A stretch of 64,000 nt of DNA from positions 26,968 through 90,967 of IMG/VR virus record IMGVR_UViG_3300025708_000007. The stretch is one strand, 5' to 3'. The translations under genes were made by a program, and so were the position numbers. Source of the DNA: a virus (Duplodnaviria > Caudoviricetes). The first letter of the stretch is position 1. Every line of letters starts with the position of its first letter. This document shows, in pieces, positions 6,612 to 33,976 of the stretch. The notes under the pieces are model-generated. The model was not told the DNA's origin and did not search any database. It saw nothing but the letters and a program-made list of their open reading frames with translations.

Positions 6612-6642
6612 TTTGTATTTATGATTTTAAGTGCTATATTTG
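6612..6642 (+). promoter_or_regulatory. Bacteroidota sigma-A type promoter of tRNA operon A
   Basis: TTTG (6612-15), 19 nt, TATATTTG (6635-42). Confidence 0.8.
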
Positions 6643-6675
6643 CACTATCATTTTTTAAGATTTATTGCTATAGTT

Positions 6676-6750
6676 ATGGAGAATTTTGTACATATTCAAC
6701 CCCAGCCACAACAGCATCCACAAGATGGTGAATGGGGAACATGTGCTTAA
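6676..6750 (+). CDS. Leader peptide A, MENFVHIQPQPQQHPQDGEWGTCA (putative attenuator)
   Basis: 10 of 11 consecutive codons are His/Gln/Pro; precedes the Pro/His/Gln tRNA cluster. Confidence 0.8.
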   Translation: MENFVHIQPQPQQHPQDGEWGTCA

Positions 6751-6785
6751 TTTTTCGAAGATGAAGTTTTGAGTTAAACATTGTG

Positions 6786-6816
6786 AACCCCATTCTGAAA
6801 AGAGTGGGGTTTTTTT
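6786..6816 (+). terminator. Attenuator terminator A
   Basis: AACCCCATTC / GAGTGGGGTT plus T run; 5' arm also complementary to GAATGGGG (6730-37). Confidence 0.85.
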
Positions 6817-6829
6817 GTTCTTTGAAATT

Positions 6830-6904
6830 CTGGGTGTTCCGCAGATGGCTATACGGGCGTGCCTTGGAAGCACGTGTTCGCTGGTTCGAATCCAGCTACC
6901 CAGA
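6830..6904 (+). tRNA. tRNA-Pro(TGG)
   Basis: Cloverleaf; CGTGC CT TGG AA GCACG. Confidence 0.9.
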
Positions 6905-6910
6905 CAACAC

Positions 6911-6984
6911 GGTGAGCGTAGTTCAGTTGGCAGAACACCAGATTGTGGTTCTGGTTGTCGCTGGTTCGAATCCAGTCGTTCACC
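6911..6984 (+). tRNA. tRNA-His(GTG)
   Basis: G-1:C73 pair; CCAGA TT GTG GT TCTGG. Confidence 0.9.
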
Positions 6985-7156
6985 CAAAAATATCGATGAT
7001 TTTATCTATATTTTCAAAATATCGATGAATTTATCGATAAAATGAAAATATCGCTTAATTACACGATAATTGTATTTATCACGTAAACAAGTGATAAATA
7101 AGTTCTTTGAATTAATGAAAAAATGGGATTTGAAAAATTTTCAAGTATTTATTTAC

Positions 7157-7564
7157 ATGAAATATCCTAAGATAATAAAACGTTGTCCTATTTGTGATAA
7201 AGAATTTGAAACAAAATCGGGACACCCCAAAGAAAAAACAGTTTGTTCACATTCTTGTGCAAACACATATTTTCGGTCTGGAACTTCAAATCCTAATTAC
7301 AAAAATGATGATGAATTAACTGGTGTTGCGAAATACATTAGAATTTGTTTTCGATATCATCCTAAAAAATGCGTCTGCTGCAATGAAACAAATATTGTGG
7401 AAGTGCATCATTATGATAATAATAAAGAAAATAATTCACCCGAAAACTTAATACCTTTATGTCCAACACATCATCAATATTGGCACAGTAGATTTAGACA
7501 TTTGATTAAAACAAAGATTGATAAATATATTGTGGAATTTAAAAAAAATTTTATCGGGGTGTAG
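7157..7564 (+). CDS. HNH endonuclease
   Basis: CVCC...VEVHHYD...NSPENLIPLCPTHH; stop codon lies inside the next tRNA. Confidence 0.8.
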   Translation: MKYPKIIKRCPICDKEFETKSGHPKEKTVCSHSCANTYFRSGTSNPNYKNDDELTGVAKYIRICFRYHPKKCVCCNETNIVEVHHYDNNKENNSPENLIPLCPTHHQYWHSRFRHLIKTKIDKYIVEFKKNFIGV

Positions 7565-7627
7565 CGCAGTTGGTAGCGTACCTGCTTTGGGAGCAGGGGG
7601 TCGTCAGTTCGAGCCTGACTACCCCGA
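7555..7627 (+). tRNA. tRNA-Pro(TGG)
   Basis: CCTGC TT TGG GA GCAGG. Confidence 0.9.
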
Positions 7628-7629
7628 CT

Positions 7630-7704
7630 GTGTTAGATGAAGATATTGGTTCTCTTCGCCTGATTGTGACTCAGGCTTCTGCGGGTTCGATTCCCGTCTA
7701 ACAC
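7630..7704 (+). tRNA. tRNA-His(GTG)
   Basis: CCTGA TT GTG AC TCAGG; G-1:C73. Confidence 0.85.
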
Positions 7705-7712
7705 CTAATTAT

Positions 7713-7785
7713 TGTCTCGTGGTGTAACGGCTAACATGGCTGACTCTGACTCAGGAGATTGCAGGTTCGAATCCTGCCGAGACAA
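7713..7785 (+). tRNA. tRNA-Gln(CTG)
   Basis: CTGA CT CTG AC TCAG; T1:A72. Confidence 0.9.
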
Positions 7786-7789
7786 CAGT

Positions 7790-7883
7790 GGTGACAGATA
7801 TAAAAAACTGCACGAGAAACAGACACGAGTGGGTTAAGAGTTGTTTTAATACCCGCAATGGTTGCCAGTACCTAATGTCACCC
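7790..7883 (+). ncRNA. Unassigned 94-nt structured RNA, copy 1
   Basis: Near-identical copy at 12760-12853 with compensatory changes. Confidence 0.75.
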
Positions 7884-7887
7884 AAAT

Positions 7888-7970
7888 TGACCTCTGGCAG
7901 AATGGTTATTGCATCGGTCTTTGAAGCCGACACCCTTTGTGGTTTACAGGTTCGAGTCCTGTGGGGTCAA
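7888..7970 (+). tRNA. tRNA-Gln(TTG) with long variable arm
   Basis: TCGGT CT TTG AA GCCGA; ~14-nt variable region. Confidence 0.8.
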
Positions 7971-8043
7971 CAAAATATATTTTTTTGCATATATTTTAAT
8001 ATGTTTGCATAAAATTATATTTATTTACATATATTTGCATAAT

Positions 8044-8198
8044 TATTGTTACGTGACGAAGCGATTCGTAATTAAGCCTTTGACTGTAAACCTTCACAGG
8101 GGTTCGGTTGCTTTCAGGATATAGTTCACTGGTTATGTGGAAAGTAACACTGTGTTAAGTGATAACTTAATGAAAGTAAAGACAGTCCCGTAACAATA
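8044..8198 (+). ncRNA. Unassigned ~155-nt multi-branched RNA
   Basis: TATTGTTACG / CGTAACAATA closing stem with internal hairpins. Confidence 0.5.
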
Positions 8199-8201
8199 CA
8201 T

Positions 8202-8275
8202 TGACCCGTAGTGTAATTGGTTAACACGTCTCACTTTGACTGAGAAGACTACAGGTTCGAGTCCTGTCGGGTCAA
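8202..8275 (+). tRNA. tRNA-Gln(TTG)
   Basis: CTCA CT TTG AC TGAG. Confidence 0.9.
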
Positions 8276-8745
8276 CTTTTTTTACGACAATGCGTTGGTA
8301 ATGTTGCGTTACAGTTAGGACATAAAATTCTTAGATTTTCAATTCTATGGTCTGAATTATCACCATTAATATGGTCGAGAATTAAACTTATATGTTCACC
8401 GTTCCAATTTTCATTCTGACCACATTTTTCACAAATACGTTTTTTTAATCCTTCTTCATATAATCTATTCTTAATATTACCCAAATTTGTATAGGTTGAG
8501 CCAGACACTAAAATTTCGATTGTTGAAATTTTGCGAGAATTATTTAATTTGGTGTTTGTTCTCATATACCGTTCTACTTTTGATTCGAAATGTGAAATAT
8601 CAATATCATATAATTTAATATATTTCTTTAGTGTAGGTCTCGAATTTCCTTTAATTCCCAATCCCAATTTTTGAAGTATTTCGGTATAATTTTTCGAGTT
8701 TTTTACAATAGGTTCAAAATTTTCTCGCAAATATTTTGTTTTCAT
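8272..8745 (-). CDS. HNH endonuclease (paralog of 45572-46246)
   Basis: CEKCG...LILDHINGDNSDHRIENLRILCPNC. Confidence 0.85.
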   Translation of the reverse strand: MKTKYLRENFEPIVKNSKNYTEILQKLGLGIKGNSRPTLKKYIKLYDIDISHFESKVERYMRTNTKLNNSRKISTIEILVSGSTYTNLGNIKNRLYEEGLKKRICEKCGQNENWNGEHISLILDHINGDNSDHRIENLRILCPNCNATLPTHCRKKS

Positions 8746-9212: not shown

Positions 9213-10358
9213 TTATCTTCTGCCACCACTTGAACTTCTACCTGCTGAACTGCTGGATGAAGAACTTCCCGAACTTCTACTTGCCCCGGACGAACCAGAA
9301 CTGAAAGAAGAACTGTTTCTGCTTTGATTCGAATAACTACTTGAACTTCTATTGTATGATTGTGGAGTACTTGATGAAGGACGTGAATAGCTGTTCGAAC
9401 TTCTTGAAGTGGATGGTGTCGAATATGACGGTCTGCTACTATTTGTAGAAGGACGAGAATAAATCGGTTTATCCTGATTTGAAGGAGTAGTTGTGCGAGT
9501 TTGCGTTTGGGTACGTGTCTGAGTAGTTGACGATGAACGAGTATATGTGCGATTTGGTGTTGTATTATTATAACTTGGTCTTGTACTCATACGTGGGTTT
9601 TCGTAAGAAGGAGTATATGTTCTTCTACTTTCACTATATGTTGGCTTATTCTGCGGATTAGTGGCAACAGTACGTCTTTCTTGTGTTGCTGTAACAGTAC
9701 GTGTTTGTGTCTGATTTTGAGCAACACTGATTCTTCTTGTTGGTTGACTAAGCGTCATTGTTGAAGGGCGTTCTCTACGACCATATTCAATATTGTTATA
9801 ATACGGCTTTGATTGATTCCAACTATAATAATTGTAATTAATTGTTTGATATCTTGGTGTATACCAATACCTATATGGTTGATGCCAATACCAGTGTGAA
9901 TAATATGGATACCCCCAACTATAATATGGATAATACCAATCATAATAGAATGGGTCATACCATCCATAATTCCAACTCCAATACCATGAATCATAATAAA
10001 ATGGTGAGTAATGATAACTATACCAAAAGCTAAAACTTCCGTGATGATACCTATTAATTAAATTTGCATAGTAATAATCATCGCTGTAATAATAATTGTT
10101 AACGATGGTTTTTTGTTGTTCCTTTTTAATTTCTCTTTTTTCTTGTCTTAAAAATTTTTGTTGCTGTTTGATAGTATCTAATTTAGCGTTATAATAGAGG
10201 TCATCAAACTCTGGTTTTTCTGCAACCTTCAATGTGTCACCAAATTTTGCAGCTTCTTTAGCTTCCCAATACTTCTCGTAATCGGATTTTTCTCTAACTT
10301 GTGCAATTAATGCACCAGTTAAAAGTAATGCAATTATTGTTAAGATTAATCTTTTCAT
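9213..10358 (-). CDS. Secreted Bacteroidota-type protein with Tyr/Trp-rich core and Ser/Arg-rich tail
   Basis: Signal peptide MKRLILTIIALLLTGALIAQ; low-complexity C terminus. Confidence 0.65.
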   Translation of the reverse strand: MKRLILTIIALLLTGALIAQVREKSDYEKYWEAKEAAKFGDTLKVAEKPEFDDLYYNAKLDTIKQQQKFLRQEKREIKKEQQKTIVNNYYYSDDYYYANLINRYHHGSFSFWYSYHYSPFYYDSWYWSWNYGWYDPFYYDWYYPYYSWGYPYYSHWYWHQPYRYWYTPRYQTINYNYYSWNQSKPYYNNIEYGRRERPSTMTLSQPTRRISVAQNQTQTRTVTATQERRTVATNPQNKPTYSESRRTYTPSYENPRMSTRPSYNNTTPNRTYTRSSSTTQTRTQTQTRTTTPSNQDKPIYSRPSTNSSRPSYSTPSTSRSSNSYSRPSSSTPQSYNRSSSSYSNQSRNSSSFSSGSSGASRSSGSSSSSSSAGRSSSGGRR

Positions 10359-12137: not shown

Positions 12138-12168
12138 TTTGTTTATTTTGAAACATTTTTTATCTTTG
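12138..12168 (+). promoter_or_regulatory. Bacteroidota-type promoter of tRNA operon B
   Basis: TTTG, 19 nt, TATCTTTG. Confidence 0.8.
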
Positions 12169-12233: not shown

Positions 12234-12329
12234 ATGAAAAGAATGCTCGACATATCAGTAATGGCAGTAGCCTTGAACGCAGTCCTATTATGGGATGCAG
12301 TAGAGGATGCGCTATGCAAAGTCGGGTAA
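12234..12329 (+). CDS. Leader peptide B, MKRMLDISVMAVALNAVLLWDAVEDALCKVG (putative attenuator)
   Basis: 20 of 31 residues are L/V/A/D/E/W, matching the downstream tRNAs. Confidence 0.8.
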   Translation: MKRMLDISVMAVALNAVLLWDAVEDALCKVG

Positions 12330-12361: not shown

Positions 12362-12398
12362 AAAAGACCCGACTTCCCTACAAGCCGGGTTTTTTTTT
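12362..12398 (+). terminator. Attenuator terminator B
   Basis: ACCCGACTT / AAGCCGGGT plus T run; 5' arm perfectly complementary to AAGTCGGGT (12319-27). Confidence 0.85.
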
Positions 12399-12408
12399 GA
12401 AAGGAGAA

Positions 12409-12426
12409 GTTCTTTGACATGCTGGA
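12409..12426 (+). promoter_or_regulatory. boxA-like antitermination element
   Basis: GTTCTTTGACATGCTGGA, identical at 34045-34062. Confidence 0.6.
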
Positions 12427-12431
12427 AATTT

Positions 12432-12507
12432 GGTGCTGGGGTCTGCTTGGCGTGGACGCATGACTGTCACTCATGATATCAGGAGAGTTCGAATCTCTTC
12501 AGCACCG
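12432..12507 (+). tRNA. tRNA-Asp(GTC)
   Basis: CATGA CT GTC AC TCATG; G73. Confidence 0.9.
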
Positions 12508-12511
12508 CATA

Positions 12512-12629
12512 CGGTCTTATAAATAATTACCCTGAGTAAATCGGGTAGCCGATGTACACGGTTTGGAACGATTCGGAAAGCAAGCATGCATTGCTCGATG
12601 AGGGGGGGTTCGAATCCCTGTAAGACCGC
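12512..12629 (+). ncRNA. tRNA-like RNA: acceptor stem and T arm with a non-tRNA interior
   Basis: CGGTCTTA / TAAGACCG; GGG TTCGAAT CCC. Confidence 0.55.
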
Positions 12630-12634
12630 AATTT

Positions 12635-12706
12635 CGAGGTCGTAGTTTAATGGTTAGAATGCCACCCTGTCACGATGGAGAAGGGGTTCGAATCCCACGG
12701 CTTCGG
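12635..12706 (+). tRNA. tRNA-Asp(GTC), weak T stem
   Basis: CCACC CT GTC AC GATGG. Confidence 0.7.
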
Positions 12707-12759
12707 CAAATTTTACTGTTAAAGCAGTAAAAAGTGCCATATATGATACTAAAGATAGT

Positions 12760-12853
12760 GATGACCGATGTAAAAAACTGCACGAGAAACAGACACGAGT
12801 GGGTTAAGAGTTGTTTTAATACCCGCAACGGTTGCCAGTACCCAAGGTCATCC
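12760..12853 (+). ncRNA. Unassigned 94-nt structured RNA, copy 2
   Basis: 87 of 94 nt identical to 7790-7883. Confidence 0.75.
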
Positions 12854-12857
12854 AGAT

Positions 12858-12931
12858 GCTGCGTTCGGCAAGATGGTTAAGCCGTAAGACCTTCAATCTT
12901 ACATGCATGGGTTCGAGTCCCATACGCAGTA
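12858..12931 (+). tRNA. tRNA-Glu(TTC) with non-canonical C33
   Basis: TAAGA CC TTC AA TCTTA. Confidence 0.7.
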
Positions 12932-13046
12932 CAAGTGAAATCGAAATGTCGTAAGATAGTAGTAGTTAAGTCTACCGATTTTTGTGGTTTTGAGCACGAG
13001 ACGCTCATGTAATAGGGCATACACTCCCTTTCCACCACTTACTTAT

Positions 13047-13118
13047 GCTCGATTCTTCTAACGGTAAGGAAAACTGACTCTCAATCAGTTAATGGCAGTT
13101 CAATTCTGCCATCGAGTA
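13047..13118 (+). tRNA. tRNA-Glu(CTC)
   Basis: ACTGA CT CTC AA TCAGT. Confidence 0.85.
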
Positions 13119-13123
13119 CAATT

Positions 13124-13198
13124 GGTCGGCTCGTCTAATTGGTTAGGACATCACCCTTTCACGGTGAAGATTTACGGGTTCGAGTCCCATACGCAATA
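13124..13198 (+). pseudogene. Chimeric tRNA-Glu(TTC) with unpaired acceptor stem
   Basis: 5' GGTCGGC cannot pair with 3' ACGCAAT; 3' end copies that of the 12858 tRNA. Confidence 0.65.
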
Positions 13199-13199
13199 C

Positions 13200-13292
13200 A
13201 ATGTTGAGGTGGTATTACACAGAGAAAAGAAAGTCTCTGCAGAGAACCTAAAAAATAATGGCTGCATGCGGGTGAAAATCCCGTCAACGTTA
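13200..13292 (+). ncRNA. tRNA-like RNA with TGAAAAT T-loop variant
   Basis: AATGTTG / CAACGTT stem; GCGGG TGAAAAT CCCGT. Confidence 0.5.
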
Positions 13293-13295
13293 AAT

Positions 13296-13367
13296 GTCCG
13301 GTTCGTCTAACGGTTAGGACACCACCCTTTCACGGTGAAAATACGAGTTCGATTCACGTACCGGATA
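13296..13367 (+). tRNA. tRNA-Glu(TTC)
   Basis: CACC CT TTC AC GGTG. Confidence 0.85.
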
Positions 13368-13407
13368 CTATAAATCGGCACTAAATTCAATTTGCTGCCG
13401 AAAATTT

Positions 13408-13481
13408 GCTTCCTTAACTCAGTCCGGGAGAGTGTCTGTTTTACATACAGAAAGTCGCAGGTTCAAACCCTGCAGGAAGCA
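13408..13481 (+). tRNA. tRNA-Val(TAC)
   Basis: TCTGT TT TAC AT ACAGA. Confidence 0.9.
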
Positions 13482-13485
13482 CAAA

Positions 13486-13670
13486 ATGCCAAAGACTTGG
13501 GATAACATTCTCTTAAAGGGAAACCGGAGTAGTGATAGCTTAAACGAAGGGGTTTCATAGTCAATGGTAACAGCGAAAAGATAGCCACTCAGTAACTGTT
13601 GGGTGAGTAATGTAAGGGTTAAGCATGCCGGAGCGAAAGCCGGAAGATAAGGTTCGAATCCCCCACCCCA
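13486..13670 (+). ncRNA. Unassigned ~185-nt structured RNA ending in a T-loop motif
   Basis: CACTCA/TGGGTG and CCGG-GC-GAAA-GC-CGG hairpins; GGTTCGAATCC near the 3' end. Confidence 0.45.
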
Positions 13671-13674
13671 AAAT

Positions 13675-13752
13675 GCACTCTTAGCTCAGTTGGTTCAGAG
13701 CGTGTGCCTTACAAGCACAGGGTCGGGGGTTCGAATCCCTCAGAGTGCACCA
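13675..13752 (+). tRNA. tRNA-Val(TAC), CCA encoded
   Basis: TGTGC CT TAC AA GCACA. Confidence 0.92.
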
Positions 13753-13828
13753 AAATGAAAAATATGCTCAAAAACAAAAAAATATTATACTTTTGAGCAT
13801 ATGTTAGTATTTATTGTAAATTATTATC

Positions 13829-14326
13829 ATGGAAAGCTGTATTTTTTGTGGACATAGCAATATCGTTAGGGCAGGTAAAAATAAAAGGGGTAGTCAAAGA
13901 TATATTTGCAGAAAATGTGGTAAATATTTTAACGAAAATACTGACCCAAACATTGGAGTTATATTAAATGGTAAAAAATATTGTTCTAAGTGTAAAACAT
14001 TTAAGTTAGTATCGGAATTTCAATCAACAAATGGTAGATTACGTTATTGTTGTAAAAAATGTGCATCAAAATCAAGTAAAGCAAGATTCAGAAATCATAA
14101 TATAACTGAATTTGAATTCGTTAATTTAATCGATAGTCAAAAAAATATGTGTCCAATATGTGGGGATAAATTTAAATCATATAAACATGCAATTATTGAC
14201 CATAATCATAAAAATGGTAAAAATAGAGAATTATTATGTTCTAAATGTAATACGTTGTTAGGTATGTGTAATGATAATATTGATATTCTCAATAGTGCAA
14301 TCAATTATTTATTAAAACACAATTAA
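13829..14326 (+). CDS. Endonuclease VII-type HNH endonuclease with N-terminal Zn ribbons
   Basis: CPICG...IIDHNH.NGKNRELLCSKCNTLLG. Confidence 0.85.
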   Translation: MESCIFCGHSNIVRAGKNKRGSQRYICRKCGKYFNENTDPNIGVILNGKKYCSKCKTFKLVSEFQSTNGRLRYCCKKCASKSSKARFRNHNITEFEFVNLIDSQKNMCPICGDKFKSYKHAIIDHNHKNGKNRELLCSKCNTLLGMCNDNIDILNSAINYLLKHN

Positions 14327-14383
14327 TTTATCGGTATATTTGCCTATAAAGATATATTATCGGCTCTACAACCGATAAAATTT

Positions 14384-14466
14384 CCTCAAGTGTTGTAATT
14401 GGGTAGCCAAGCCAGACTAAGAATCTGGTGTCGAAAGATGTGTGGGTTCGAGTCCCACCTTGAGGA
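14384..14466 (+). tRNA. tRNA-Leu(AAG), rare A34 anticodon
   Basis: CCAGA CT AAG AA TCTGG; long variable arm. Confidence 0.85.
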
Positions 14467-14472
14467 CAAAAT

Positions 14473-14559
14473 GCGGATGTGATGGAATGGTAGACATGAT
14501 ACGCTTAGAACGTATTGCGAAGTAATAGTAGCGTGGGGGTTCGAGTCCCTTCATCCGTA
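14473..14559 (+). tRNA. tRNA-Leu(TAG)
   Basis: ATACG CT TAG AA CGTAT; long variable arm. Confidence 0.9.
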
Positions 14560-14565
14560 CTAAAT

Positions 14566-14640
14566 GCTGGTGTAGCCGAATGGTAAAGAGGCAACTGTTT
14601 TAGAAACAGAAATTTGTGGGTTCGACTCCCACCACCAGTA
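14566..14640 (+). tRNA. tRNA-Leu(TAG) with short variable loop
   Basis: CTGT TT TAG AA ACAG; no long arm. Confidence 0.75.
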
Positions 14641-14644
14641 CAAA

Positions 14645-14868
14645 GATGTTAATAAATAGAGTTGAGGGGCAGTAAGAGTGGTAATGAAAAGTCCTGAGAA
14701 CCACCACCAGTTTGTTAACATTGAGAGAGGCGCATGACAGATTCGAGCAGGGATGACTGCGTAGCCTGTACCAAGTGTTCTTAAAAGTGAAGGAGTAATA
14801 CCTTCAGGCGCATTATTTCGAACTGCAAAGGGGTAATGGTCGAATTACTAATAAGGTACTACTCTCAT
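14645..14868 (+). ncRNA. Unassigned structured intergenic RNA(s)
   Basis: ATGTTAATAAA/TTTGTTAACAT domain then TGAGAG/CTCTCA domain; non-coding, inside the tRNA array. Confidence 0.4.
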
Positions 14869-14870
14869 TT

Positions 14871-14944
14871 GGGGTCGTAGCTCAATTGGCAAGAGCACCT
14901 GCCTTGCACGCAGGGGGTTGAGGGTTCGAGTCCCTTCGACTCCA
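14871..14944 (+). tRNA. tRNA-Ala(TGC)
   Basis: CCTGC CT TGC AC GCAGG; G3:U70. Confidence 0.92.
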
Positions 14945-14947
14945 CAA

Positions 14948-15027
14948 AATGAAATACAGAAAGTCTGGGTCAAACCCCAGAGAGACGTAAAATGTCGAGA
15001 AGTGTGACGGCACGTCTGTATTTCATT
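14948..15027 (+). ncRNA. 80-nt cloverleaf-topology RNA with 13-bp closing stem
   Basis: AATGAAATACAGA / TCTGTATTTCATT enclosing three short hairpins. Confidence 0.55.
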
Positions 15028-15031
15028 CTTT

Positions 15032-15103
15032 GGGGCAGTAACTCAACGGCTGAGTGCTTGACTTGCAATCAAGTGTATGCGGGTTCGAATCCCGTCTGCT
15101 CCA
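15032..15103 (+). tRNA. tRNA-Ala(TGC)
   Basis: CTTGA CT TGC AA TCAAG; G3:U70. Confidence 0.9.
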
Positions 15104-15183
15104 CAAAATTGGTTGGAATTATTCCGTCAATTCTGTAATAAGAGCGTCAACAGCTACGGCATTAACTCTTTCCAATTTTAACA

Positions 15184-15266
15184 TGACCCCTTGAATTATG
15201 CAAAATAGGCACAGCAGACAGGCTTAAACCCTGATTCTTTGTGGGTTCGAGTCCCACAGGGGTTAC
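15184..15266 (+). tRNA. Atypical tRNA-Leu(TAA): possible 8-bp acceptor, enlarged D region, short variable loop
   Basis: CAGG CT TAA AC CCTG; TGACCCCT / AGGGGTTA. Confidence 0.6.
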
Positions 15267-15274
15267 AAATTTAC

Positions 15275-15348
15275 GGCACAGTAGTCCAACTGGCAGAGAT
15301 ACCCGCCTCAAAAGCGGTTCAGTGTGGGTTCGAATCCCACCTGTGCTA
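15275..15348 (+). tRNA. tRNA-Leu(CAA) with short variable loop
   Basis: CCGC CT CAA AA GCGG. Confidence 0.8.
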
Positions 15349-15399
15349 CAAGCACGCACACAATGAATCGAAAATAAATTTTCGAAGTATTTATGATAT

Positions 15400-16068
15400 A
15401 TGATACCACTATATACACAAACGGAATTTGATTTAGCAAAAGATAATGATAAATTACCTTGTAAATGTGTTGAATGTGGTAAAATTTTTTATAAACTGAA
15501 AAGGGTGATAAAAAGAACATTCATTGGCTACGATAGAAACATTGGTGATTATTGTTCAAGAAGATGTGCTCGATTATCAAAAAAATCGAGTGCAGATGTT
15601 GTTTGCAGTAATTGTGGAAAATCTTTCAATAAAGTAAAAAGTCAAATTAAAAGAAGCAAAAATCATTTTTGTTCTAAATCATGTTCTGCAATTTATAATA
15701 ACGTCCATAAAAAACATGGAACACGAAAATCCAAACTTGAAAAATGGTTGGAATATAATCTCACCAAAATATACCCAGACTTAAATTTTCATTTTAATTG
15801 CAAAGACACCATTAATTCAGAACTTGATATTTATATTCCATCATTAAAATTAGCTTTTGAATTAAATGGAATATACCATTACGAACCAATATATGGTGAG
15901 GATAAACTTCAACAAATTCAAAGCAATGATAATCGTAAATTTCAAGCCTGTTTGGAAAAAGGTATCGAACTATGTATTATTGATACTTCACAACAAAAAT
16001 ATTTTAAAGAACAAACATCACAAAAATATTTAAAAATCGTACAAGAAATAATAAACACACATCGGTAG
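15400..16068 (+). CDS. Zn-finger repeat plus PD-(D/E)XK (Vsr/DUF559-like) endonuclease
   Basis: CxxC...YCSxxC repeats; ELDIYIPSLKLAFELNG..HY; stop codon inside tRNA-Trp. Confidence 0.8.
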   Translation: MIPLYTQTEFDLAKDNDKLPCKCVECGKIFYKLKRVIKRTFIGYDRNIGDYCSRRCARLSKKSSADVVCSNCGKSFNKVKSQIKRSKNHFCSKSCSAIYNNVHKKHGTRKSKLEKWLEYNLTKIYPDLNFHFNCKDTINSELDIYIPSLKLAFELNGIYHYEPIYGEDKLQQIQSNDNRKFQACLEKGIELCIIDTSQQKYFKEQTSQKYLKIVQEIINTHR

Positions 16069-16130
16069 TTCAGTGGTAGAACGTTGGTCTCCAAAACCAA
16101 ATGTCGGGTGTTCGAATCGCCCCCGGTGTG
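16059..16130 (+). tRNA. tRNA-Trp(CCA)
   Basis: TTGGT CT CCA AA ACCAA. Confidence 0.9.
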
Positions 16131-16136
16131 CTAAAT

Positions 16137-16211
16137 GTGTCTGTCGTCTAATGGCTAAGATATTGGCTTCCAAACCCAAGGATGAAGGTTCGAGTCCTTC
16201 CAGACATGCCA
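16137..16211 (+). tRNA. tRNA-Trp(CCA), CCA end encoded
   Basis: TTGGC TT CCA AA CCCAA; G73. Confidence 0.8.
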
Positions 16212-16244
16212 AAACACGGAATAAAACCGTGCCAATTTTCGTAA

Positions 16245-16369
16245 TGAAACGGTGAAAAAATCGCAGGTGCGAGGCACAATCACCGTTGGAGTCCAAATCC
16301 GACACAGATACCACTGAGGGCAGAAGTGTACCCAAGAGCAATATCAGTTAGTGGTTCGTCACCGTTTCA
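16245..16369 (+). ncRNA. Unassigned ~125-nt RNA
   Basis: Perfect 11-bp TGAAACGGTGA / TCACCGTTTCA closure; alternative internal TCACCGTT. Confidence 0.45.
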
Positions 16370-16686
16370 GAAAGTTTCAGTATTTTGTAACATTTTCAAA
16401 TTTATTTCGTATAATCATTAAAAAGAAAGGAGCATGCCTTCAAAATAACATTTAAATATCGCAAGACTTGGTGGTGGAGATTTGTACATTACAATTATTT
16501 TCACAAGCAATTGTTCAGAAAATATTATGTGCAAAGAAAAAGAGCACTTACCGAAAAGGAAATCAAGAAGTATAAACGATATCAGAAAATCGATGACTTG
16601 ATAACTTTAAGAAAAGTAGATTGGTTGCGAGAATTTATATGGCGATTAGAACCATAATTTTGTATTTATTGATAAAAGTGAAAATT

Positions 16687-17118
16687 ATGAAAAAAATATT
16701 GTTTCTTTTAACTCTGGTGATTATTGCAATGTTTTTGATGTCACAGACACAAACAACAAGGCAGAAAGAAGTTTATTATCAGGATAAATTTGCTGAAATC
16801 ATCAAAGGCAGCACAAGCGTTACATTATGGGATAAAACTGAAGTCGATATTCTTACCGACACATTTGCAATCGAAGTTGATTTTTCTGAGAAATGGGCAG
16901 AAAGCATAGGTCAGTCATTATATTATGCTGAAATGACAAATCGTAAAGCAGGTGTTTTACTTGTTGTAAATAGTAATCTCGATGAAAGATTTATCAGAAG
17001 ACTAATGACCGTTGCTATGAGAAAAGACATTACTGTTTGGTTAATGGACTATACCACAGAAAAATGGTGCAAAGTTGATAGATTTGTTGAATATTCTTAT
17101 TCATACGAATTTAAATAA
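16687..17118 (+). CDS. Signal-peptide protein with PD-(D/E)XK-like motif
   Basis: DILTDTFAIEVDFSEKWAESIGQSLYY. Confidence 0.6.
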   Translation: MKKILFLLTLVIIAMFLMSQTQTTRQKEVYYQDKFAEIIKGSTSVTLWDKTEVDILTDTFAIEVDFSEKWAESIGQSLYYAEMTNRKAGVLLVVNSNLDERFIRRLMTVAMRKDITVWLMDYTTEKWCKVDRFVEYSYSYEFK

Positions 17119-17159
17119 CACTTGTTTGTTTCAGAAAAAAGAATTAAATTTGTCACCCT

Positions 17160-17894
17160 ATGTATATCATTGCAAAGAAAAAGGACTATTATGATGGCGT
17201 TGCTGGAAGTACTGGCATTGACAAAACCATTGTTTATGACCGTCAAATAGTTGAACTTGAAAGGGACGAAATACCCACTGAGTTCAGGAAAAGGGGTTAT
17301 TATACTAAAGAAAACAACCCATTATATCTTTTAAGCAATGCCAGCATAAAAAAAGAATATCAGGAAACATATCCAAAAGGTGCATATTTCATTATTGGAT
17401 TTTGTGGTAAACTTTATCTGGGGTGGAAATTCTATAGTTTCAAAAAGAATTGTGAGTATAATGATTATGAAAACATTAATACTTTAATAACATACGATTT
17501 GGACTATATTAAAGAAATCCTTGAAGAAAAAACTTGGTATGGTGTCACTGCTGACCAAATCGAAAGTGTATTAAATTTTAATGCAACGGATTGGTTCAGA
17601 AAATTTAATGCTCCTTGTTTTGTTTACGATTATGATTATGGCAGAACACACCTTGATGAAAAATATTGGAGAAGTGATAATGTTTCAAAATTTATAATCA
17701 ATCCTCTTTTAAAAGACTACGAATTTTATAAAGTATTTGATTCATTTCAAGCATTTCAGGAAGTTTCGATGTTCATAGGCGGTGTACTTGGCAAGGAAGA
17801 AAAAGATATTGTAGAAGTTGCGGATAAATATAAAATTGCGCAACATGGTTTTGATAAATGGAGTTTCAGAAAAATGCCAAAAAATGAAAAATAG
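17160..17894 (+). CDS. Hypothetical phage protein
   Basis: 244-aa ORF, KDYYD...HGFDKWSFRK. Confidence 0.7.
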   Translation: MYIIAKKKDYYDGVAGSTGIDKTIVYDRQIVELERDEIPTEFRKRGYYTKENNPLYLLSNASIKKEYQETYPKGAYFIIGFCGKLYLGWKFYSFKKNCEYNDYENINTLITYDLDYIKEILEEKTWYGVTADQIESVLNFNATDWFRKFNAPCFVYDYDYGRTHLDEKYWRSDNVSKFIINPLLKDYEFYKVFDSFQAFQEVSMFIGGVLGKEEKDIVEVADKYKIAQHGFDKWSFRKMPKNEK

Positions 17895-18084
17895 TGTTAC
17901 GGATGAAAATGATAATCCAATTGGATTGATGGAACAAATAAGAAAGCAATCTGAAGAGAACAAAAAAATTGAAATTAATCTCGAAGAAAAATTAAGTGAG
18001 CCTTGGAAAAAACCCAATATTGACACAATATATGGTGGAATTGAATTTATTGAAAAATTTAATGAAGAGTTAAATGAAACATAA
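17884..18084 (+). CDS. Hypothetical protein
   Basis: Short ORF overlapping the previous stop. Confidence 0.5.
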   Translation: MKNSVTDENDNPIGLMEQIRKQSEENKKIEINLEEKLSEPWKKPNIDTIYGGIEFIEKFNEELNET

Positions 18085-18154
18085 TTGAAGACTTTATTCA
18101 TGAAGTCAGATACAGTATTTCTTTAATGGATGGTACGCATCCTTGACGTTCTTT

Positions 18155-18527
18155 GGGGCAGTTTGGTTTTGACAGCATGCTTGAATGGTATGTAAGCAAG
18201 TCGTAGTTTGAGCAACACTACGTAAAAACAGGTTCAAAACAATAAATGCAGAGGATATAATGTCCATTCCTACTTCTCTAACGAGAGGTCGCTTATTTGT
18301 AGAGAGTGCTGAACTCGCAATGGTAGCGTAAGGAAGCAGCAAACGCAGCAAAAACCTTCCAAATAAACCCATCTCGATGGAACTTGTTATTTTAACAGAG
18401 AGATAAGGAAGTAAAATAAAACAGTGGATAAAAAATAAATGTTTTGCTGATTTAGAAAAATCAGATAAACTTGTAGAAAACGTATTGGGCACATGACTGC
18501 ACACGGGTTCGAATCCCGTCTGCTCCA
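18155..18527 (+). ncRNA. ssrA: tmRNA
   Basis: GGGGCAG / CTGCTCC-A acceptor with G3:U70, stemless D region, T arm, resume context TAAAT-GCA and a tag ORF ending AMVA. Confidence 0.9.
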
Positions 18528-18552
18528 CTAAAACATTTAAAACATTGAAATT

Positions 18553-18990
18553 ATGAGTGACCATAGTAAACAAATAGAATTACTGGAAAAACTTCTCAAT
18601 TCTGAGGAAGGTAAAGCCTCTATGAAAAAATTTTTCAACGATTTGGCAGATAAGAAAAAAATTGCTGAAGGTCGTTATAGGAAATTTGAAAAATGGCTTG
18701 AAACTCACGATTTAGATGAAATAATGCAACGTCTTGAAAAAGAACATTGTGTTGAATGGCGTAATAAGTGTTATAATAATGGTTATGAACCATATCCAAA
18801 TAACAAACTTGCTTTTTTAATTGATTATGTCGTTCATAATTATTATTCAATTAGCGTACCGCAAATTGAAAGCGAACATTTCGCAAATCAATCTTGGTTT
18901 TTCAAAGGATACTATATTAATATGACTTGGGGTCAGGGAGTGTTCACGCAAATATTTGACAGCAAATTCAATCAAATTATTGCGCTATGA
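18553..18990 (+). CDS. Hypothetical protein
   Basis: 145-aa ORF. Confidence 0.65.
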   Translation: MSDHSKQIELLEKLLNSEEGKASMKKFFNDLADKKKIAEGRYRKFEKWLETHDLDEIMQRLEKEHCVEWRNKCYNNGYEPYPNNKLAFLIDYVVHNYYSISVPQIESEHFANQSWFFKGYYINMTWGQGVFTQIFDSKFNQIIAL

Positions 18991-19301: not shown

Positions 19302-19328
19302 CTGAAACTTTTTGCGGTAAAAATAAAC

Positions 19329-19418
19329 GGGGGTGTGATGAAATTGGTAGCACATACGGGACTTAAAATCCCGTGGGCAGTAATGCCCGTGTCGGTTCGA
19401 GTCCGACCACCCCTACCA
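19329..19418 (+). tRNA. tRNA-Leu(TAA), CCA encoded
   Basis: CGGGA CT TAA AA TCCCG; long variable arm. Confidence 0.92.
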
Positions 19419-19423
19419 AAACA

Positions 19424-19526: not shown

Positions 19527-19545
19527 GTTTTTAAATTAAAATGAT

Positions 19546-20850: not shown

Positions 20851-20870
20851 CTAAAAAAAATGTATTGGTT

Positions 20871-21374: not shown

Positions 21375-21409
21375 AAGGGCATCAGTCTTTTAAGTTAATT
21401 ACTTAAAAG

Positions 21410-21733
21410 ATGAAAGCAAAAAAAATCTCAGACGAAACCACTAATCGTGGTGAATTCAATCGTGCATACAAGTTTTATCTTGAGCACAGTGGCAAAATTA
21501 GCTGTAGTTATTGTCGTTACAATCGTGGCGAAAATTCAAATCAAAAATGGTATGGTGGTTATCTTTATGATGACATGGAAATTTGTCGTGGTAAAAGAAA
21601 GGGAACAAATACCAGATTTCCAAACTGGAAACTTGTTTCAAAAAATAAAAAACAGTGGATGGAAAAGCCAATCAAAATGAAAAAAAGATATTTTGGTGGG
21701 TATACCAGAATTTATATCGACATTGTTTGGTAA
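21410..21733 (+). CDS. Hypothetical protein
   Basis: 107-aa basic ORF with CSYC. Confidence 0.6.
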   Translation: MKAKKISDETTNRGEFNRAYKFYLEHSGKISCSYCRYNRGENSNQKWYGGYLYDDMEICRGKRKGTNTRFPNWKLVSKNKKQWMEKPIKMKKRYFGGYTRIYIDIVW

Positions 21734-21745
21734 TGTCGATTATTT

Positions 21746-21818
21746 GGCGGGATAGCTCAGTTGGTAGAGCGATGGAGTCATAACCCATAGGTCGTGAGTT
21801 CGAATCTCACTCCCGCTA
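21746..21818 (+). tRNA. tRNA-Met(CAT) (elongator Met or Ile2)
   Basis: ATGG..GT CAT AA..CCAT; GGCGGGA / TCCCGCT. Confidence 0.85.
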
Positions 21819-21823
21819 CAAAT

Positions 21824-21851
21824 AAAAAAACCCATCGAATTCGATGGGTTT
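21824..21851. terminator. Bidirectional terminator
   Basis: AAACCCATCG / CGATGGGTTT between convergent units. Confidence 0.65.
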
Positions 21852-27928: not shown

Positions 27929-27959
27929 TTTGTTTTTATCGTATTTATCCTTACATTTG
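27929..27959 (+). promoter_or_regulatory. Bacteroidota-type promoter of tRNA operon C
   Basis: TTTG, 19 nt, TACATTTG. Confidence 0.8.
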
Positions 27960-27987: not shown

Positions 27988-28077
27988 ATGATGACTATTT
28001 TTGGAACATATTATTACGGTAAAAAATCTTATAAGAAACAACTTATAGGAATCGGGAATACTATGTCCAAAAATTAA
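27988..28077 (+). CDS. Leader peptide C, MMTIFGTYYYGKKSYKKQLIGIGNTMSKN (putative attenuator)
   Basis: YYYGKKSYKK run precedes a cluster containing only Tyr and Lys tRNAs. Confidence 0.82.
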   Translation: MMTIFGTYYYGKKSYKKQLIGIGNTMSKN

Positions 28078-28105: not shown

Positions 28106-28134
28106 AACCCGATTCCGAAAGAGTCGGGTTTTTT
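28106..28134 (+). terminator. Attenuator terminator C
   Basis: AACCCGATTC / GAGTCGGGTT plus T run; CCCGATTCC also pairs perfectly with GGAATCGGG (28048-56). Confidence 0.85.
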
Positions 28135-28146
28135 ATTTTGTATATT

Positions 28147-28228
28147 CGGCAGAATGGTAAGTGGGTGAAATCACAGGTCTGTAAAACCTTCGCCATTGGC
28201 TATGGGGGTTCGAATCCCTCTCTGCCGA
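28147..28228 (+). tRNA. tRNA-Tyr(GTA) with apparent C1:G72
   Basis: AGGT CT GTA AA ACCT; long variable arm. Confidence 0.8.
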
Positions 28229-28277
28229 CTGAAAGAGTTTAGGCATTTTCTGTATCGCTGACTGAAATATCCAAATT

Positions 28278-28351
28278 GACTTCGTATCCGTAGTGGCTTT
28301 CGGACTTGACTCTTAATCAAGGATACGTGGGTTCGAATCCCACCGAGGTCA
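28278..28351 (+). tRNA. tRNA-Lys(CTT)
   Basis: CTTGA CT CTT AA TCAAG. Confidence 0.88.
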
Positions 28352-28356
28352 CAAAT

Positions 28357-28439
28357 GGGAGTGCGCTATCGTTGGAGAGATAGGCTTGTCTGTAAAACAA
28401 GTGCCATTGGCTGAGTTGGTTCGAATCCTATCGCTCCCA
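28357..28439 (+). tRNA. tRNA-Tyr(GTA)
   Basis: CTTGT CT GTA AA ACAAG. Confidence 0.85.
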
Positions 28440-28446
28440 CAAATTT

Positions 28447-28519
28447 GCGCTTGTAACTCAGTTGGTAGAGTAACGGACCTTTAATCCGTGAGTCGTGGGT
28501 TCGACCCCCACCGGGCGCA
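28447..28519 (+). tRNA. tRNA-Lys(TTT) with non-canonical C33
   Basis: ACGGA CC TTT AA TCCGT. Confidence 0.85.
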
Positions 28520-28526
28520 CAAATAT

Positions 28527-28600
28527 TCTCCTATAGCAAACAGGATGTATTGCCCCGCTCTTTTAAAGCGGTGGGTCTGGTTCGATTCCAGATAGGAGAA
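28527..28600 (+). tRNA. tRNA-Lys(TTT)
   Basis: CCGCT CT TTT AA AGCGG. Confidence 0.8.
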
Positions 28601-28688
28601 CAGACAAGCATTGTGTTCATACTAACATTTAATTAATGAATATAATGCTTTTTCGTTTTGCAATGTATTTATCATAAAAGTATTTTTT

Positions 28689-29333
28689 ATGTATCATTGC
28701 AATAAATGTGATAAAAACTTCGAAAATCGGTATTCTTATATAGCACATTGCCGAATTCATTCCAATTATGTAAGACCCAAAAATCCAAATTCAAGACGAA
28801 ATAAACCACCCAAAACAATATGTATATATTGTGGTAAAACTTTTCAGAATGGACGTAGTTTAGGTGGACACATGACCCATTGCGAATTAAATCCAAATCA
28901 TAATCTTATTTTACAAAACATGTCCAAAGCAAGTCCAAAACGAAAATGGTCAGAAGAAGATAAAAAGAAAATTAGTAGAAGAATGATTGAATTTTTAATG
29001 AAAAATCCAGACAAAGTACCATATAAATTAAATCATTCAAGTAAAATGAGTTATCCTGAAAGAGTATTTGAAAATGCATTAAAATCAGCAAATATTTCAG
29101 GTTGGACATACAATTACCAAAATGGAATTTATTCATATGACTTTGCGTTTCCAGTTTTGAAAATAGATGTGGAAATTGATGGAAATACACATATCCAAGA
29201 AAAGGTGAGAAATATTGATAAACGCAGGGATAAATTTAGTACCAATAATGGTTGGATTGTAATTCGTTTTACCGCAAATGAAATTAAAGAAGATGTTTTG
29301 AAATGTATAAATACATTAAAAACATTTCTTTAA
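28689..29333 (+). CDS. C2H2 zinc-finger plus DUF559/Vsr-like endonuclease
   Basis: CNKC..H...H; YDFAFPVLKIDVEIDGNTH; GWIVIRF. Confidence 0.8.
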   Translation: MYHCNKCDKNFENRYSYIAHCRIHSNYVRPKNPNSRRNKPPKTICIYCGKTFQNGRSLGGHMTHCELNPNHNLILQNMSKASPKRKWSEEDKKKISRRMIEFLMKNPDKVPYKLNHSSKMSYPERVFENALKSANISGWTYNYQNGIYSYDFAFPVLKIDVEIDGNTHIQEKVRNIDKRRDKFSTNNGWIVIRFTANEIKEDVLKCINTLKTFL

Positions 29334-33047: not shown

Positions 33048-33048
33048 T

Positions 33049-33231
33049 ATGATAATATTGGAAAACAAAATTATTGGTGAAAAGTACGTTGCAGGATATT
33101 ACCTGACAATGGAAGATTTAAAAAGGCTTGTAAGAGATTTTCAAGCAGATTGTCACGATGGATTCATAAGTAATGATGAAGCATATCTTGAACAGTGGCT
33201 TAAAAAGCACGAACGAATCGAAAAAAAATAA
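33049..33231 (+). CDS. Hypothetical protein
   Basis: 60-aa ORF after nrdJ. Confidence 0.55.
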   Translation: MIILENKIIGEKYVAGYYLTMEDLKRLVRDFQADCHDGFISNDEAYLEQWLKKHERIEKK

Positions 33232-33233
33232 GC

Positions 33234-33269
33234 AAAAACCCCGGAAAGCCAGTATTTTCGGGGTTTTTT
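33234..33269 (+). terminator. Intrinsic terminator
   Basis: AAAACCCCGGAAA / TTTTCGGGGTTTT. Confidence 0.7.
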
Positions 33270-33308
33270 ATTGTTTGTTGTAGTATTTATTATAAAAAAT
33301 TATAAATC

Positions 33309-33524
33309 ATGGAAACTGTGTTAACAATATTGTTACTTTACATATTGGGAGTGACAATTTATACTATCTTGGTAAGAAAAAGTCCAACAAATAAACATGT
33401 GCCGAACTTTAATTATAAGTCAACAATAATTGATGGAATGAAAGGGATGGCTATTGGTTTTGCAGTTGTCGGTGCATTATATTTTATCTTAGGACAAATT
33501 TTAACTTGGGTTCATATACATTGA
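33309..33524 (+). CDS. Small membrane protein
   Basis: Two hydrophobic segments. Confidence 0.55.
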   Translation: METVLTILLLYILGVTIYTILVRKSPTNKHVPNFNYKSTIIDGMKGMAIGFAVVGALYFILGQILTWVHIH

Positions 33525-33579
33525 ATATTAACGAGTTAGATTTTTTCTGTAAAAAAAATGAAAAAAATATTGAAAATAA

Positions 33580-33610
33580 TTTGGTATTTATGAAACATTT
33601 TATACCTTTG
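33580..33610 (+). promoter_or_regulatory. Bacteroidota-type promoter of tRNA operon D
   Basis: TTTG, 19 nt, TACCTTTG. Confidence 0.8.
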
Positions 33611-33679
33611 CATCGTATTTAGGTAAAAATGAGTTTATGAAAAAACCTTTTTATTATTAAAAACAAAAAAAATAAAACA

Positions 33680-33814
33680 ATGAAACGAATAGCGTACATA
33701 TTAGTATCGAGTCTAACGACAACCAGTCGTATTGGAGAAGGTACATTTTGCTCAGATTTCGGCAGAAATAATATTGCGGATACGGGTTCAGGTTTTATTG
33801 ACTTAAAAAGATAA
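33680..33814 (+). CDS. Leader peptide D, MKRIAYILVSSLTTTSRIGEGTFCSDFGRNNIADTGSGFIDLKR (putative attenuator)
   Basis: 30 of 44 residues are S/T/G/I/R/F/N/C, matching the downstream tRNAs. Confidence 0.8.
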   Translation: MKRIAYILVSSLTTTSRIGEGTFCSDFGRNNIADTGSGFIDLKR

Positions 33815-33847
33815 GTAGGTAGTAAAATAAAACTGAAATAAAATCAG

Positions 33848-33879
33848 AACCCGGAATCCAAAAAAGTTCCGGGTTTTTT
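33848..33879 (+). terminator. Attenuator terminator D
   Basis: AACCCGGAAT / GTTCCGGGTT plus T run; alternative pairing with 33778-33799. Confidence 0.85.
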
Positions 33880-33904
33880 GTTTTTAATGCGTTCTTTACA
33901 TATT

Positions 33905-33976
33905 GCCAAGTTAGTTTAACGGATAGAATCTCTGTGTGGTATTCAGGGGATACAAGTTCGATTCTTGTACTTGGCT
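33905..33976 (+). tRNA. tRNA-Thr(GGT)
   Basis: GCCAAGT / ACTTGGC; loop GT GGT AT. Confidence 0.75.

Follow-up and report, generated by a model that had tools for sequence, protein, structure and literature searches.

Leader-peptide attenuators predicted upstream of four amino-acid-sorted tRNA operons in a huge-phage genome fragment

The stretch analyzed here, referred to as the window, comprises 64,000 nucleotides (nt) and corresponds to positions 26968-90967 of the 90,967-bp IMG/VR viral contig IMGVR_UViG_3300025708_000007 (Duplodnaviria; Caudoviricetes). The completeness of this contig is estimated at approximately 28%, and the window is therefore a piece of a phage genome of about 300 kb or larger. 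Its GC content is 31-35%. The window contains 50 transfer RNA (tRNA) genes, a transfer-messenger RNA (tmRNA) gene and a tRNA with the anticodon CUA, all on the + strand, and no tRNA gene is found in the 27 kb of the contig 5' of the window. Every one of the 50 tRNAs, as well as the tmRNA, is placed 3' of one of four units, A to D, in which a promoter is followed by a short leader open reading frame (ORF) of 24-44 codons, an intrinsic terminator and a block of tRNA genes. The initial annotation had described this fourfold architecture as starting at 6612, 12138, 27929 and 33580, and every element was found at its place.

The anatomy of the units, all of which are on the + strand, can be read directly from the nucleotides. 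The promoters lie at 6612-6642 (A), 12138-12168 (B), 27929-27959 (C) and 33580-33610 (D), and have the form TTTG-N19-TAnnTTTG, which is of the Bacteroidota type and which, for promoter A, is kept in relatives. This motif occurs at six sites on the + strand of the 91-kb contig, four of which are the unit promoters, and an A-rich segment is common to all four upstream regions. The leader ORFs begin 21-62 nt after the predicted transcription starts and run from ATG to TAA, covering 6676-6750 (A, 24 codons), 12234-12329 (B, 31 codons), 27988-28077 (C, 29 codons) and 33680-33814 (D, 44 codons). The terminators are located at 6785-6819 (A; 6785-6812 in the terminator scan), 12365-12398 (B; 12365-12391), 28106-28136 (C; 28106-28130) and 33846-33879 (D; 33846-33877). 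They consist of GC-rich stems of 10-12 bp and T-runs, that of unit A having a 12-bp stem of −18.4 kcal/mol, and the distance from the T-run to the first tRNA is 11-34 nt. The stringent scan gave 14 terminators on the + strand of the contig, and 4 of these 14 are the unit terminators.

The tRNA genes are sorted by amino acid among the four blocks. Block A (6830-8276) contains Pro, His, Pro, His and three Gln tRNAs. Block B (12432-21819) contains two Asp, three Glu, two Val, four Leu, two Ala and two Trp tRNAs; after Trp come the tmRNA (18155-18528), Leu(taa), Leu(caa) and Met, with endonuclease-like ORFs in between. Block B presumably forms a single transcription unit, and a palindromic hairpin at a convergent gene junction (21828-21851, no strand assigned) likely marks its end. 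Block C (28147-28601) consists of Tyr, Lys, Tyr, Lys and Lys, and the first part of block D (33905-36909) consists of Thr, Cys, Asn, Phe, Ser, Phe, Arg, Phe, Gly, Ile and Asn. It had been noted initially that the sets cover 19 amino acids without overlap; there is indeed no overlap, but the sets span 20 of 20 amino acids when the tRNA-Met at 21746, which closes unit B, is included.

The composition of each leader was compared with the amino acids of its own downstream tRNAs, which define the cognate set of the unit. Leader A has 10 cognate residues of 23 (expected 2.0, P 9e-6), leader B has 22 of 30, namely Asp/Glu/Val/Leu/Ala/Trp/Met (expected 10.3, P 1e-5), leader C has 9 of 28 (expected 4.1, P 0.016), and leader D has 30 of 43, namely Thr/Cys/Asn/Phe/Ser/Arg/Gly/Ile (expected 18.2, P 2.5e-4), which bears out the enrichment of every leader for its own cluster that had been claimed. 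The cognate codons form runs: codons 6-16 of leader A contain 10 Pro/His/Gln codons in 11 consecutive positions (HIQPQPQQHPQ), and codons 8-17 of leader C contain 8 Tyr/Lys codons in 10 (YYYGKKSYKK). The combinations of a leader with the set of another unit do not exceed expectation, and the actual assignment of leaders to clusters ranks first of 24 permutations. When residues were shuffled among the leaders, 35.3 ± 4.7 cognate residues were expected, compared with the 71 of 124 observed (z 7.7, 0/20000 shuffles). The z values of four relatives were 7.2-7.7, so that the five genomes span 7.2-7.7, and the actual assignment was the top permutation in all five genomes tested (5/5). Over 19 units, 59% of the residues are cognate in the ORF frame, compared with 25% and 28% when these nucleotides are translated in either of the other frames. 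The other frames are at background, so that the match belongs to the reading frame; nucleotide composition and RNA structure were rejected as causes of the bias, structure accounting for at most 2-3 codons per leader.

A different account would regard the short ORFs as small functional peptides or chance ORFs and the hairpins as ordinary terminators or processing signals, without coupling between them. The 383 other ATG-initiated ORFs of 20-50 codons in the window served as a null for this account. An enrichment at least equal to that of the leader was found in 2, 0, 4 and 7 of the 383 ORFs for sets A, B, C and D, respectively, which places the leaders in the top 0.8%, 0.3%, 1.3% and 2.1%. The initial annotation had named similar enrichment of random short ORFs as a point that would tell against its reading. 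Taken singly, such ORFs do exist, as 0.3-2% of them reach the individual levels, and one enrichment alone is therefore unremarkable. Taken jointly, position and correct set together are not matched (Fisher P 7e-6 in the window alone), and the pattern recurs in five other genomes. Chance was ruled out by this null together with the residue shuffle, the permutations and the frame control. Leaders B and D start like hydrophobic, signal-like peptides, which would favor a peptide function. The confinement of the match to the reading frame speaks against the whole account, as do the variation of the leaders in relatives and the covariation of their helices described below, and we regard it as highly improbable.

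At the level of individual codons, leader D carries ACG ACA ACC in a row, and the phage encodes Thr tRNAs cgt, tgt and ggt. In the related genome G008, the leader of the unit with Arg cct/tct contains AGR codons and that of the unit with Arg acg contains CGC, while in G006 the Leu codons are exclusively TTR in the unit with Leu tRNAs taa/caa, and CTN codons are found in that with tag/aag. The direction of this match in the split Leu and Arg families is right and the counts are small, so that it is suggestive only.

In 4/4 units the 5' arm of the terminator (region 3) and a stretch within the 3' part of the leader ORF (region 2) are complementary, as the initial annotation had stated. The energies of the 2:3 duplexes are −14.6 (A), −15.1 (B), −12.8 (C) and −13.7 kcal/mol (D), and those of the terminators are −9.9 to −18.4 kcal/mol; in unit B the antiterminator is stronger than the terminator (−9.9 kcal/mol). 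Pairing of equal strength was found in only 0.9%, 1.0%, 0.2% and 3.3% (A-D) of 1000 same-length random genomic segments, and the empirical P of the antiterminator pairing is 0.002-0.033. The segments that pair are GAATGGGG with CCCCATTC in unit A, AAGTCGGG with CCCGACTT in unit B, GAATCGGG with CCCGATTC in unit C, and CGGGTTC with GAACCCG in unit D.

Region 2 also has an alternative partner inside the regulatory codons, denoted region 1. In unit A, region 2 (6729-6738) can pair either with the terminator 5' arm or with region 1 (approximately 6699-6710), where ACCCCA lies in Gln-Pro-Gln codons. In unit B, region 1 (approximately 12243-12252) has CTCGAC in Leu-Asp codons, and region 2 (12318-12328) overlaps the stop codon. 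Region 1 of unit C (28017-28035) covers Tyr-Gly-Lys-Lys-Ser-Tyr-Lys codons and is followed by region 2 at 28042-28057. The region 2 core of unit D is located at 33782-33790, with a predicted extended helix to approximately 33799, and the 1:2 pairing of this unit comes only from the fold of a single sequence. The pairing of region 1 with region 2 is seen in 9 A-type and 9 B-type leaders. The terminator, the antiterminator and the anti-antiterminator are mutually exclusive, with compensatory changes in relatives. Judged by base complementarity, the four units follow the classical 1:2 / 2:3 / 3:4 layout. In every leader type the regulatory codons lie 5' of region 2 and overlap region 1, and therefore a ribosome stalled on them would free region 2 and lead to read-through.

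Related contigs were located via flanking genes, and the tRNA regions of genomes G001-G014 were taken from whole genomes. A homologue search for A/B-type units via the gene at 9213-10358 gave one weak locus only, and no cultured relative was found in the phage collection, the matches being uncultured huge-phage records and generic tRNA matches. All four leaders and their terminators are conserved in the relatives and the ATG is invariant, in keeping with the conservation on which the initial annotation had made its reading depend; in G011 the leader of unit B is present and the T-run of its terminator is interrupted. Among 18 C-type sequences, the ATG is invariant and the indels in the regulatory codons are of 3 nt. 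One C-type homologue has a 1-nt deletion past the regulatory codons, which alters the peptide tail and leaves region 2 intact, and the spacer from region 2 to the terminator is hypervariable. This pattern fits regulatory codons and an RNA element rather than a functional peptide, since a frameshift after the regulatory codons is tolerated and the RNA element is retained.

The helices themselves are maintained by compensatory changes. In the 18 C-type sequences the 1:2 helix is 94% paired, and one of its pairs, which joins the synonymous third base of a Lys codon to the first base of a Leu/Phe codon, covaries fully (GC 12, AU 6, 0 broken). The C-type 2:3 helix is invariant, and the 2:3 duplex is found in 15/15 close homologues. 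For 12 D-type leaders with differing terminator arms, the 2:3 energy is −12.1 kcal/mol with the cognate arm and −10.2 kcal/mol with non-cognate arms (permutation P < 5e-5). Regions 1-4 of A-type units change in concert in G006, G007 and G001; in G001, GAACGGGG occurs with CCCCGTTC and GAGCGGGG. Both the 1:2 and the 2:3 pairing thus covary.

Leader composition also follows the re-sorting of tRNAs between phages. Related huge phages divide their tRNAs among operons in at least four ways, and the composition of the leaders follows each of them. The genomes G001 (357 kb) and G007 (322 kb), both complete, have the partition of the window and matching leaders. G006 (247 kb) divides set D: a leader with 13 of 24 Thr/Arg/Ile residues precedes Thr, Arg, Arg and Ile, and a second D-derived leader, 30/38 cognate, precedes Phe, Ile, Ser, Gly, Asn, Leu(tag, aag) and Cys. 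G008-G010 (421-676 kb) have three units each with sets unlike those of the window, namely Leu/Asp/Asn/Met/Glu/Tyr(/Cys), Thr/Gly/Ala/Gln/Pro/Arg and Trp/Ile/Val/His/Ser/Phe/Lys(/Arg), and their leaders are cognate for the new sets, those of G008 (675 kb) with 20/27, 27/43 and 25/38 residues. A fourth partition occurs in the published, unannotated GenBank record LR745206.1 (634,780 bp), where the leader at 342380-342475 precedes His/Phe/Trp/Lys/Arg/Ser, that at 387700-387816 precedes Asn/Arg/Leu/Val/Ile/Thr/Met (29/37 cognate, P 3e-6), and that at 406703-406798 precedes Pro/Asp/Gln. Asp is grouped with Pro/Gln in this genome, and the leader of that unit has gained Asp codons.

Each unit thus contains a promoter-proximal ORF, regulatory codons, a terminator, an exclusive antiterminator and a region 1 overlapping the regulatory codons, which are the elements of an attenuator. 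We consider it likely, on the strength of these sequence comparisons, that each unit is a ribosome-mediated attenuator that responds to the decoding of the listed codons and provides a demand-driven supply of tRNA. The initial annotation had proposed such attenuation, and every available test at the sequence level supports it. In the proposed mechanism, the Bacteroidota-type promoter would start the transcript and a ribosome would translate the short leader. If the cognate codons of the block are read slowly, the ribosome would sit on region 1, and region 2 would then be free to pair with region 3, so that no terminator would form and the polymerase would enter the tRNA genes; in unit B the read-through would extend to the phage tmRNA. 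If decoding is fast, the ribosome would reach the stop codon over region 2, region 2 would be covered or retaken by region 1, regions 3:4 would form the terminator, and the transcript would end after approximately 150-260 nt. The outcome would be a negative feedback by which each tRNA set is produced on demand. The anatomy, the frame-bound composition match, the alternative pairings and the agreement of leaders with operon content are seen in the sequences, and translation of the leaders, regulated termination, the direction of the response and its physiological trigger are inferred. In vivo, the signal could be depletion of tRNAs by host nucleases, a host tRNA pool that does not fit the codon usage of the phage, or starvation. 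A role specifically in defence against host tRNA-targeting nucleases is far less likely than the attenuation itself.

The competition between the pairings was modelled on the transcript that stops just past region 3, with the nucleotides from −15 to +12 relative to the A site masked as the ribosome footprint. In unit A, the probability of the 2:3 pairing is 0.12 for the naked RNA, reaches 0.93-1.0 while the ribosome occupies codons 1-14, and is 0 with the ribosome anywhere from codon 16 to the stop codon; in this model of RNA folding, unit A behaves as a textbook attenuator. In the other units, the probability falls to 0 with the ribosome over codon 26 to the stop codon (B), codons 18-28 (C) and codons 32-42 (D). 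When the full-length transcript is folded at equilibrium, the 2:3 pairing still switches in unit C (from 0 to 0.9-1.0) and in unit B (from 0.07 to 0.9).

Several results weigh against attenuation of this kind, and the first group comes from the same folds. The naked RNA of B, C and D favors the 2:3 antiterminator at equilibrium, 1:2 beating 2:3 in A only, so that a state in which the absence of translation leads to termination is supported only for A. In C and D, a ribosome that has reached the stop codon leaves region 2 uncovered, and termination after fast translation must therefore depend on timing or on re-formation of the 1:2 pairing. In the full-length equilibrium fold of A and D, the terminator is favored at every position of the ribosome, and kinetic control must therefore be assumed, as in classical attenuators. 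The behavior of the naked RNA of B, C and D and the free region 2 in C and D would also suit a scheme of inverted or different logic, in which translation of the leader protects the nascent transcript or times RNA processing and stalling does not modulate termination. The position of the regulatory codons, 5' of region 2 and over region 1 in all types, is the classical geometry of stall-dependent antitermination, and such a scheme leaves the codon match unexplained; we consider it very unlikely.

The second group of unfavorable results concerns the leaders and their relatives. The enrichment of leader C across the whole ORF is modest, as its P value given above indicates. Leader D contains ATT three times, though the only tRNA-Ile of the window is tat (36279-36353). 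The 2:3 pairing is weak in units A and C of G007 and in unit D1 of G006, and no recognizable leader precedes the LR745206.1 cluster starting at 364870. Leader B retains Val/Ala/Leu/Glu codons in G003, G004 and G014 despite missing tRNAs: G003 is without Val and Ala, block B of G004 has only Asp and Trp, and G014 is without Ala. The co-variation of amino-acid bias with tRNA content, which the initial annotation had put forward as a check, therefore holds for at least four partitions and not for leader B of these three genomes, and a strict co-variation on short time scales was rejected. Since homing-endonuclease-like ORFs lie among the tRNAs of the window, recent loss of tRNA genes is plausible, and the leaders have not followed. 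The presence of Ile(gat) in block D of the relatives G001 and G002 suggests that this tRNA was recently lost from the window. In G004, a GIY-YIG-like ORF and two further ORFs lie between Asp and Trp.

The persistence of Val/Ala codons where those tRNAs are absent can also be explained if the same attenuator responds to general translation speed or amino-acid starvation, the match in composition being a historical by-product. Attenuators sense charged tRNA, so that starvation also stalls the leader ribosome, as established for trp and his. A general sensor would have no reason to track operon content, whereas the leaders do so through at least four partitions, and extra tRNA does not relieve amino-acid starvation. 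We consider a general signal unlikely, and the response to the cognate codons of each block is preferred.

Sensing without translation was considered as well. In an RNA-only switch like the T-box, the leader would bind uncharged tRNA directly and the ORF would be irrelevant; T-boxes are known tRNA-sensing leaders that choose between a terminator and an antiterminator. Over positions 5000-47000, no leader family of Rfam, including the Trp, His, Leu, Thr and Phe leaders and the T-box, gave a match at E <= 1. Known RNA families were accordingly rejected as the identity of the leaders, which resemble attenuator leaders in their presumed working and not in family sequence. The leaders are 100-200 nt long, have no specifier-loop architecture and would have to sense up to 8 amino acids each, and the composition signal is found only in the reading frame; of all the accounts considered, an RNA-only switch is the least credible. 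The T-box resembles the phage units in sensing a specific tRNA state and in its choice of terminator or antiterminator, and differs from them in binding tRNA directly without a ribosome, in controlling synthetase and amino-acid genes, and in sensing one tRNA per leader.

To our knowledge, leader-peptide attenuation is known for amino-acid biosynthesis and for a few synthetase genes, and not for tRNA genes. The initial annotation was likewise unaware of attenuation of tRNA genes, and a literature search, with subscription journals mostly outside its reach, gave no account of it, nor of any leader upstream of tRNA clusters in phages. Genes for tRNAs go unmentioned in a survey of premature terminators, which includes a His leader that precedes hisS paralogues in bacilli (PMC2965389). 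The leaders of biosynthesis operons (trpL, hisL, leuL, pheL, thrL and the ilvGMEDA/thr leaders) share with the phage units a promoter-proximal ORF of regulatory codons, the 1:2, 2:3 and 3:4 segments, a region 1 over the regulatory codons and, in ilv and thr, several amino acids per leader. In contrast, the phage units are phage-borne and would control tRNAs and the tmRNA rather than enzymes, list up to 8 amino acids per leader with the four units covering all 20, and have region 2 within the ORF, 5' of the stop codon, with no similarity to the Rfam leaders. The leaders of pheST, which encodes phenylalanyl-tRNA synthetase (pheM of E. coli), and of the hisS paralogues are alike in that attenuation acts on a translation component dedicated to the amino acid that is sensed, but they control one synthetase for one amino acid, whereas the phage units would control tRNA genes in amino-acid-sorted operons. 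The tRNA clusters of T4, T5, vibriophages and huge phages likewise contain many tRNAs interspersed with homing-endonuclease genes, and in the searchable literature no leader-peptide attenuator or amino-acid-sorted operon is described for them. Read as attenuators, the units represent a known class of mechanism on a new target, and their new design is the multi-amino-acid 'checklist' leader, by which the genetic code is partitioned among tRNA operons.

The tRNAs of large phages are thought to offset a codon-usage mismatch or the loss of host tRNAs. If the proposed attenuation is true, the phage tRNA supply would be set by demand and not constitutive, which bears on why large phages carry tRNAs at all, whether for codon-usage mismatch, host tRNA decay or anticodon nucleases. 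It would also account for the sorting of tRNA genes by amino acid into operons in these phages. The arrangement gives a rule for recognizing such units in unannotated huge-phage genomes, of which LR745206.1 is an example, and the leaders would be compact natural sensors of decoding speed for chosen codon sets, with potential as reporters. A broader and more tentative proposal is that a widespread lineage of huge phages possesses a distributed sensor of decoding capacity, in which a few multi-amino-acid leaders jointly list the 20 amino acids and each controls the operon for its own tRNAs, with the tmRNA added in unit B. Such phages would restore whichever tRNA becomes limiting, including tRNAs cleaved or depleted by host anticodon nucleases, and the sensor would serve both as counter-defence and as an adaptor of codon usage; this is possible and, in our estimate, somewhat doubtful.

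The tmRNA is located between Trp and Leu(taa), within the unit B presumed to be attenuator-controlled, and the order Trp, tmRNA, Leu, Leu, Met is retained in G001, G003, G004 and G007. The presence of a tmRNA in a stall-induced operon would tie ribosome rescue to the same signal.

The distal tRNAs (38682-43539, + strand) are two Thr, four Arg, Gly and Ser, all of which carry amino acids of set D with codons present in leader D. The membership of the distal tRNAs (38682-46399) in unit D is uncertain, as a promoter-like site at 36918 and a hairpin at 39900-39931 intervene, and no additional leader, recognizable as a short ORF and a terminator, was detected in this stretch. The site at 36918, immediately 3' of tRNA-Asn, is a fifth occurrence of TTTG-N19-TAnnTTTG. 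An ORF of 30 codons rich in Lys and Tyr (36967-37059) comes after it, and neither a terminator nor a tRNA lies 3' of this ORF. The site could act as an internal promoter from which the distal part of block D is transcribed. The CUA-anticodon tRNA (46324-46399), an amber suppressor labelled Pyl by ARAGORN, is the last tRNA of the region; its position is kept in G001-G003, G006 and G007, and the stop codon of all four leaders is TAA.

Two short motifs accompany the units. Between the terminator T-run and the first tRNA, the motif GTTCTTTGA(C)A, at times extended by TGCTGGAAATTT, is located at 6813-6829, 12400-12431 and 33880-33904, and it is present in G003, G004 and G011 too; it could mark a site of processing or provide a second signal. 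In LR745206.1, AAAAGGGAGA...CTTTTT lies approximately 19 nt 5' of two leader ATGs (L134 at 387681 and L135 at 342360) and, in the leaderless cluster (L136 at 364839), directly 5' of the first tRNA. This motif may serve either as a phage promoter element or in the manner of a Shine-Dalgarno sequence.

Homing-endonuclease-like ORFs lie among the tRNAs of the window at 7070-7564 (HNH-like, inside block A), 13829-14326, 20230-20775, 28689-29333, 34393-34986, 36472-36834 and 41954-42577, the types found between tRNAs being HNH, endonuclease VII, LAGLIDADG, DUF559/Vsr-like and endonuclease I with NUMOD3. These ORFs are probably behind the gains and losses of tRNA genes among relatives. Between Glu(ctc) and Glu(ttc), a partial tRNA match at 13133-13190 (34 bits, covering positions 10-63 of the model) probably represents the remnant of a tRNA gene. 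Unit B also contains a peptidase C39-like ORF of the papain fold (20826-21374), between Leu(caa) and Met.

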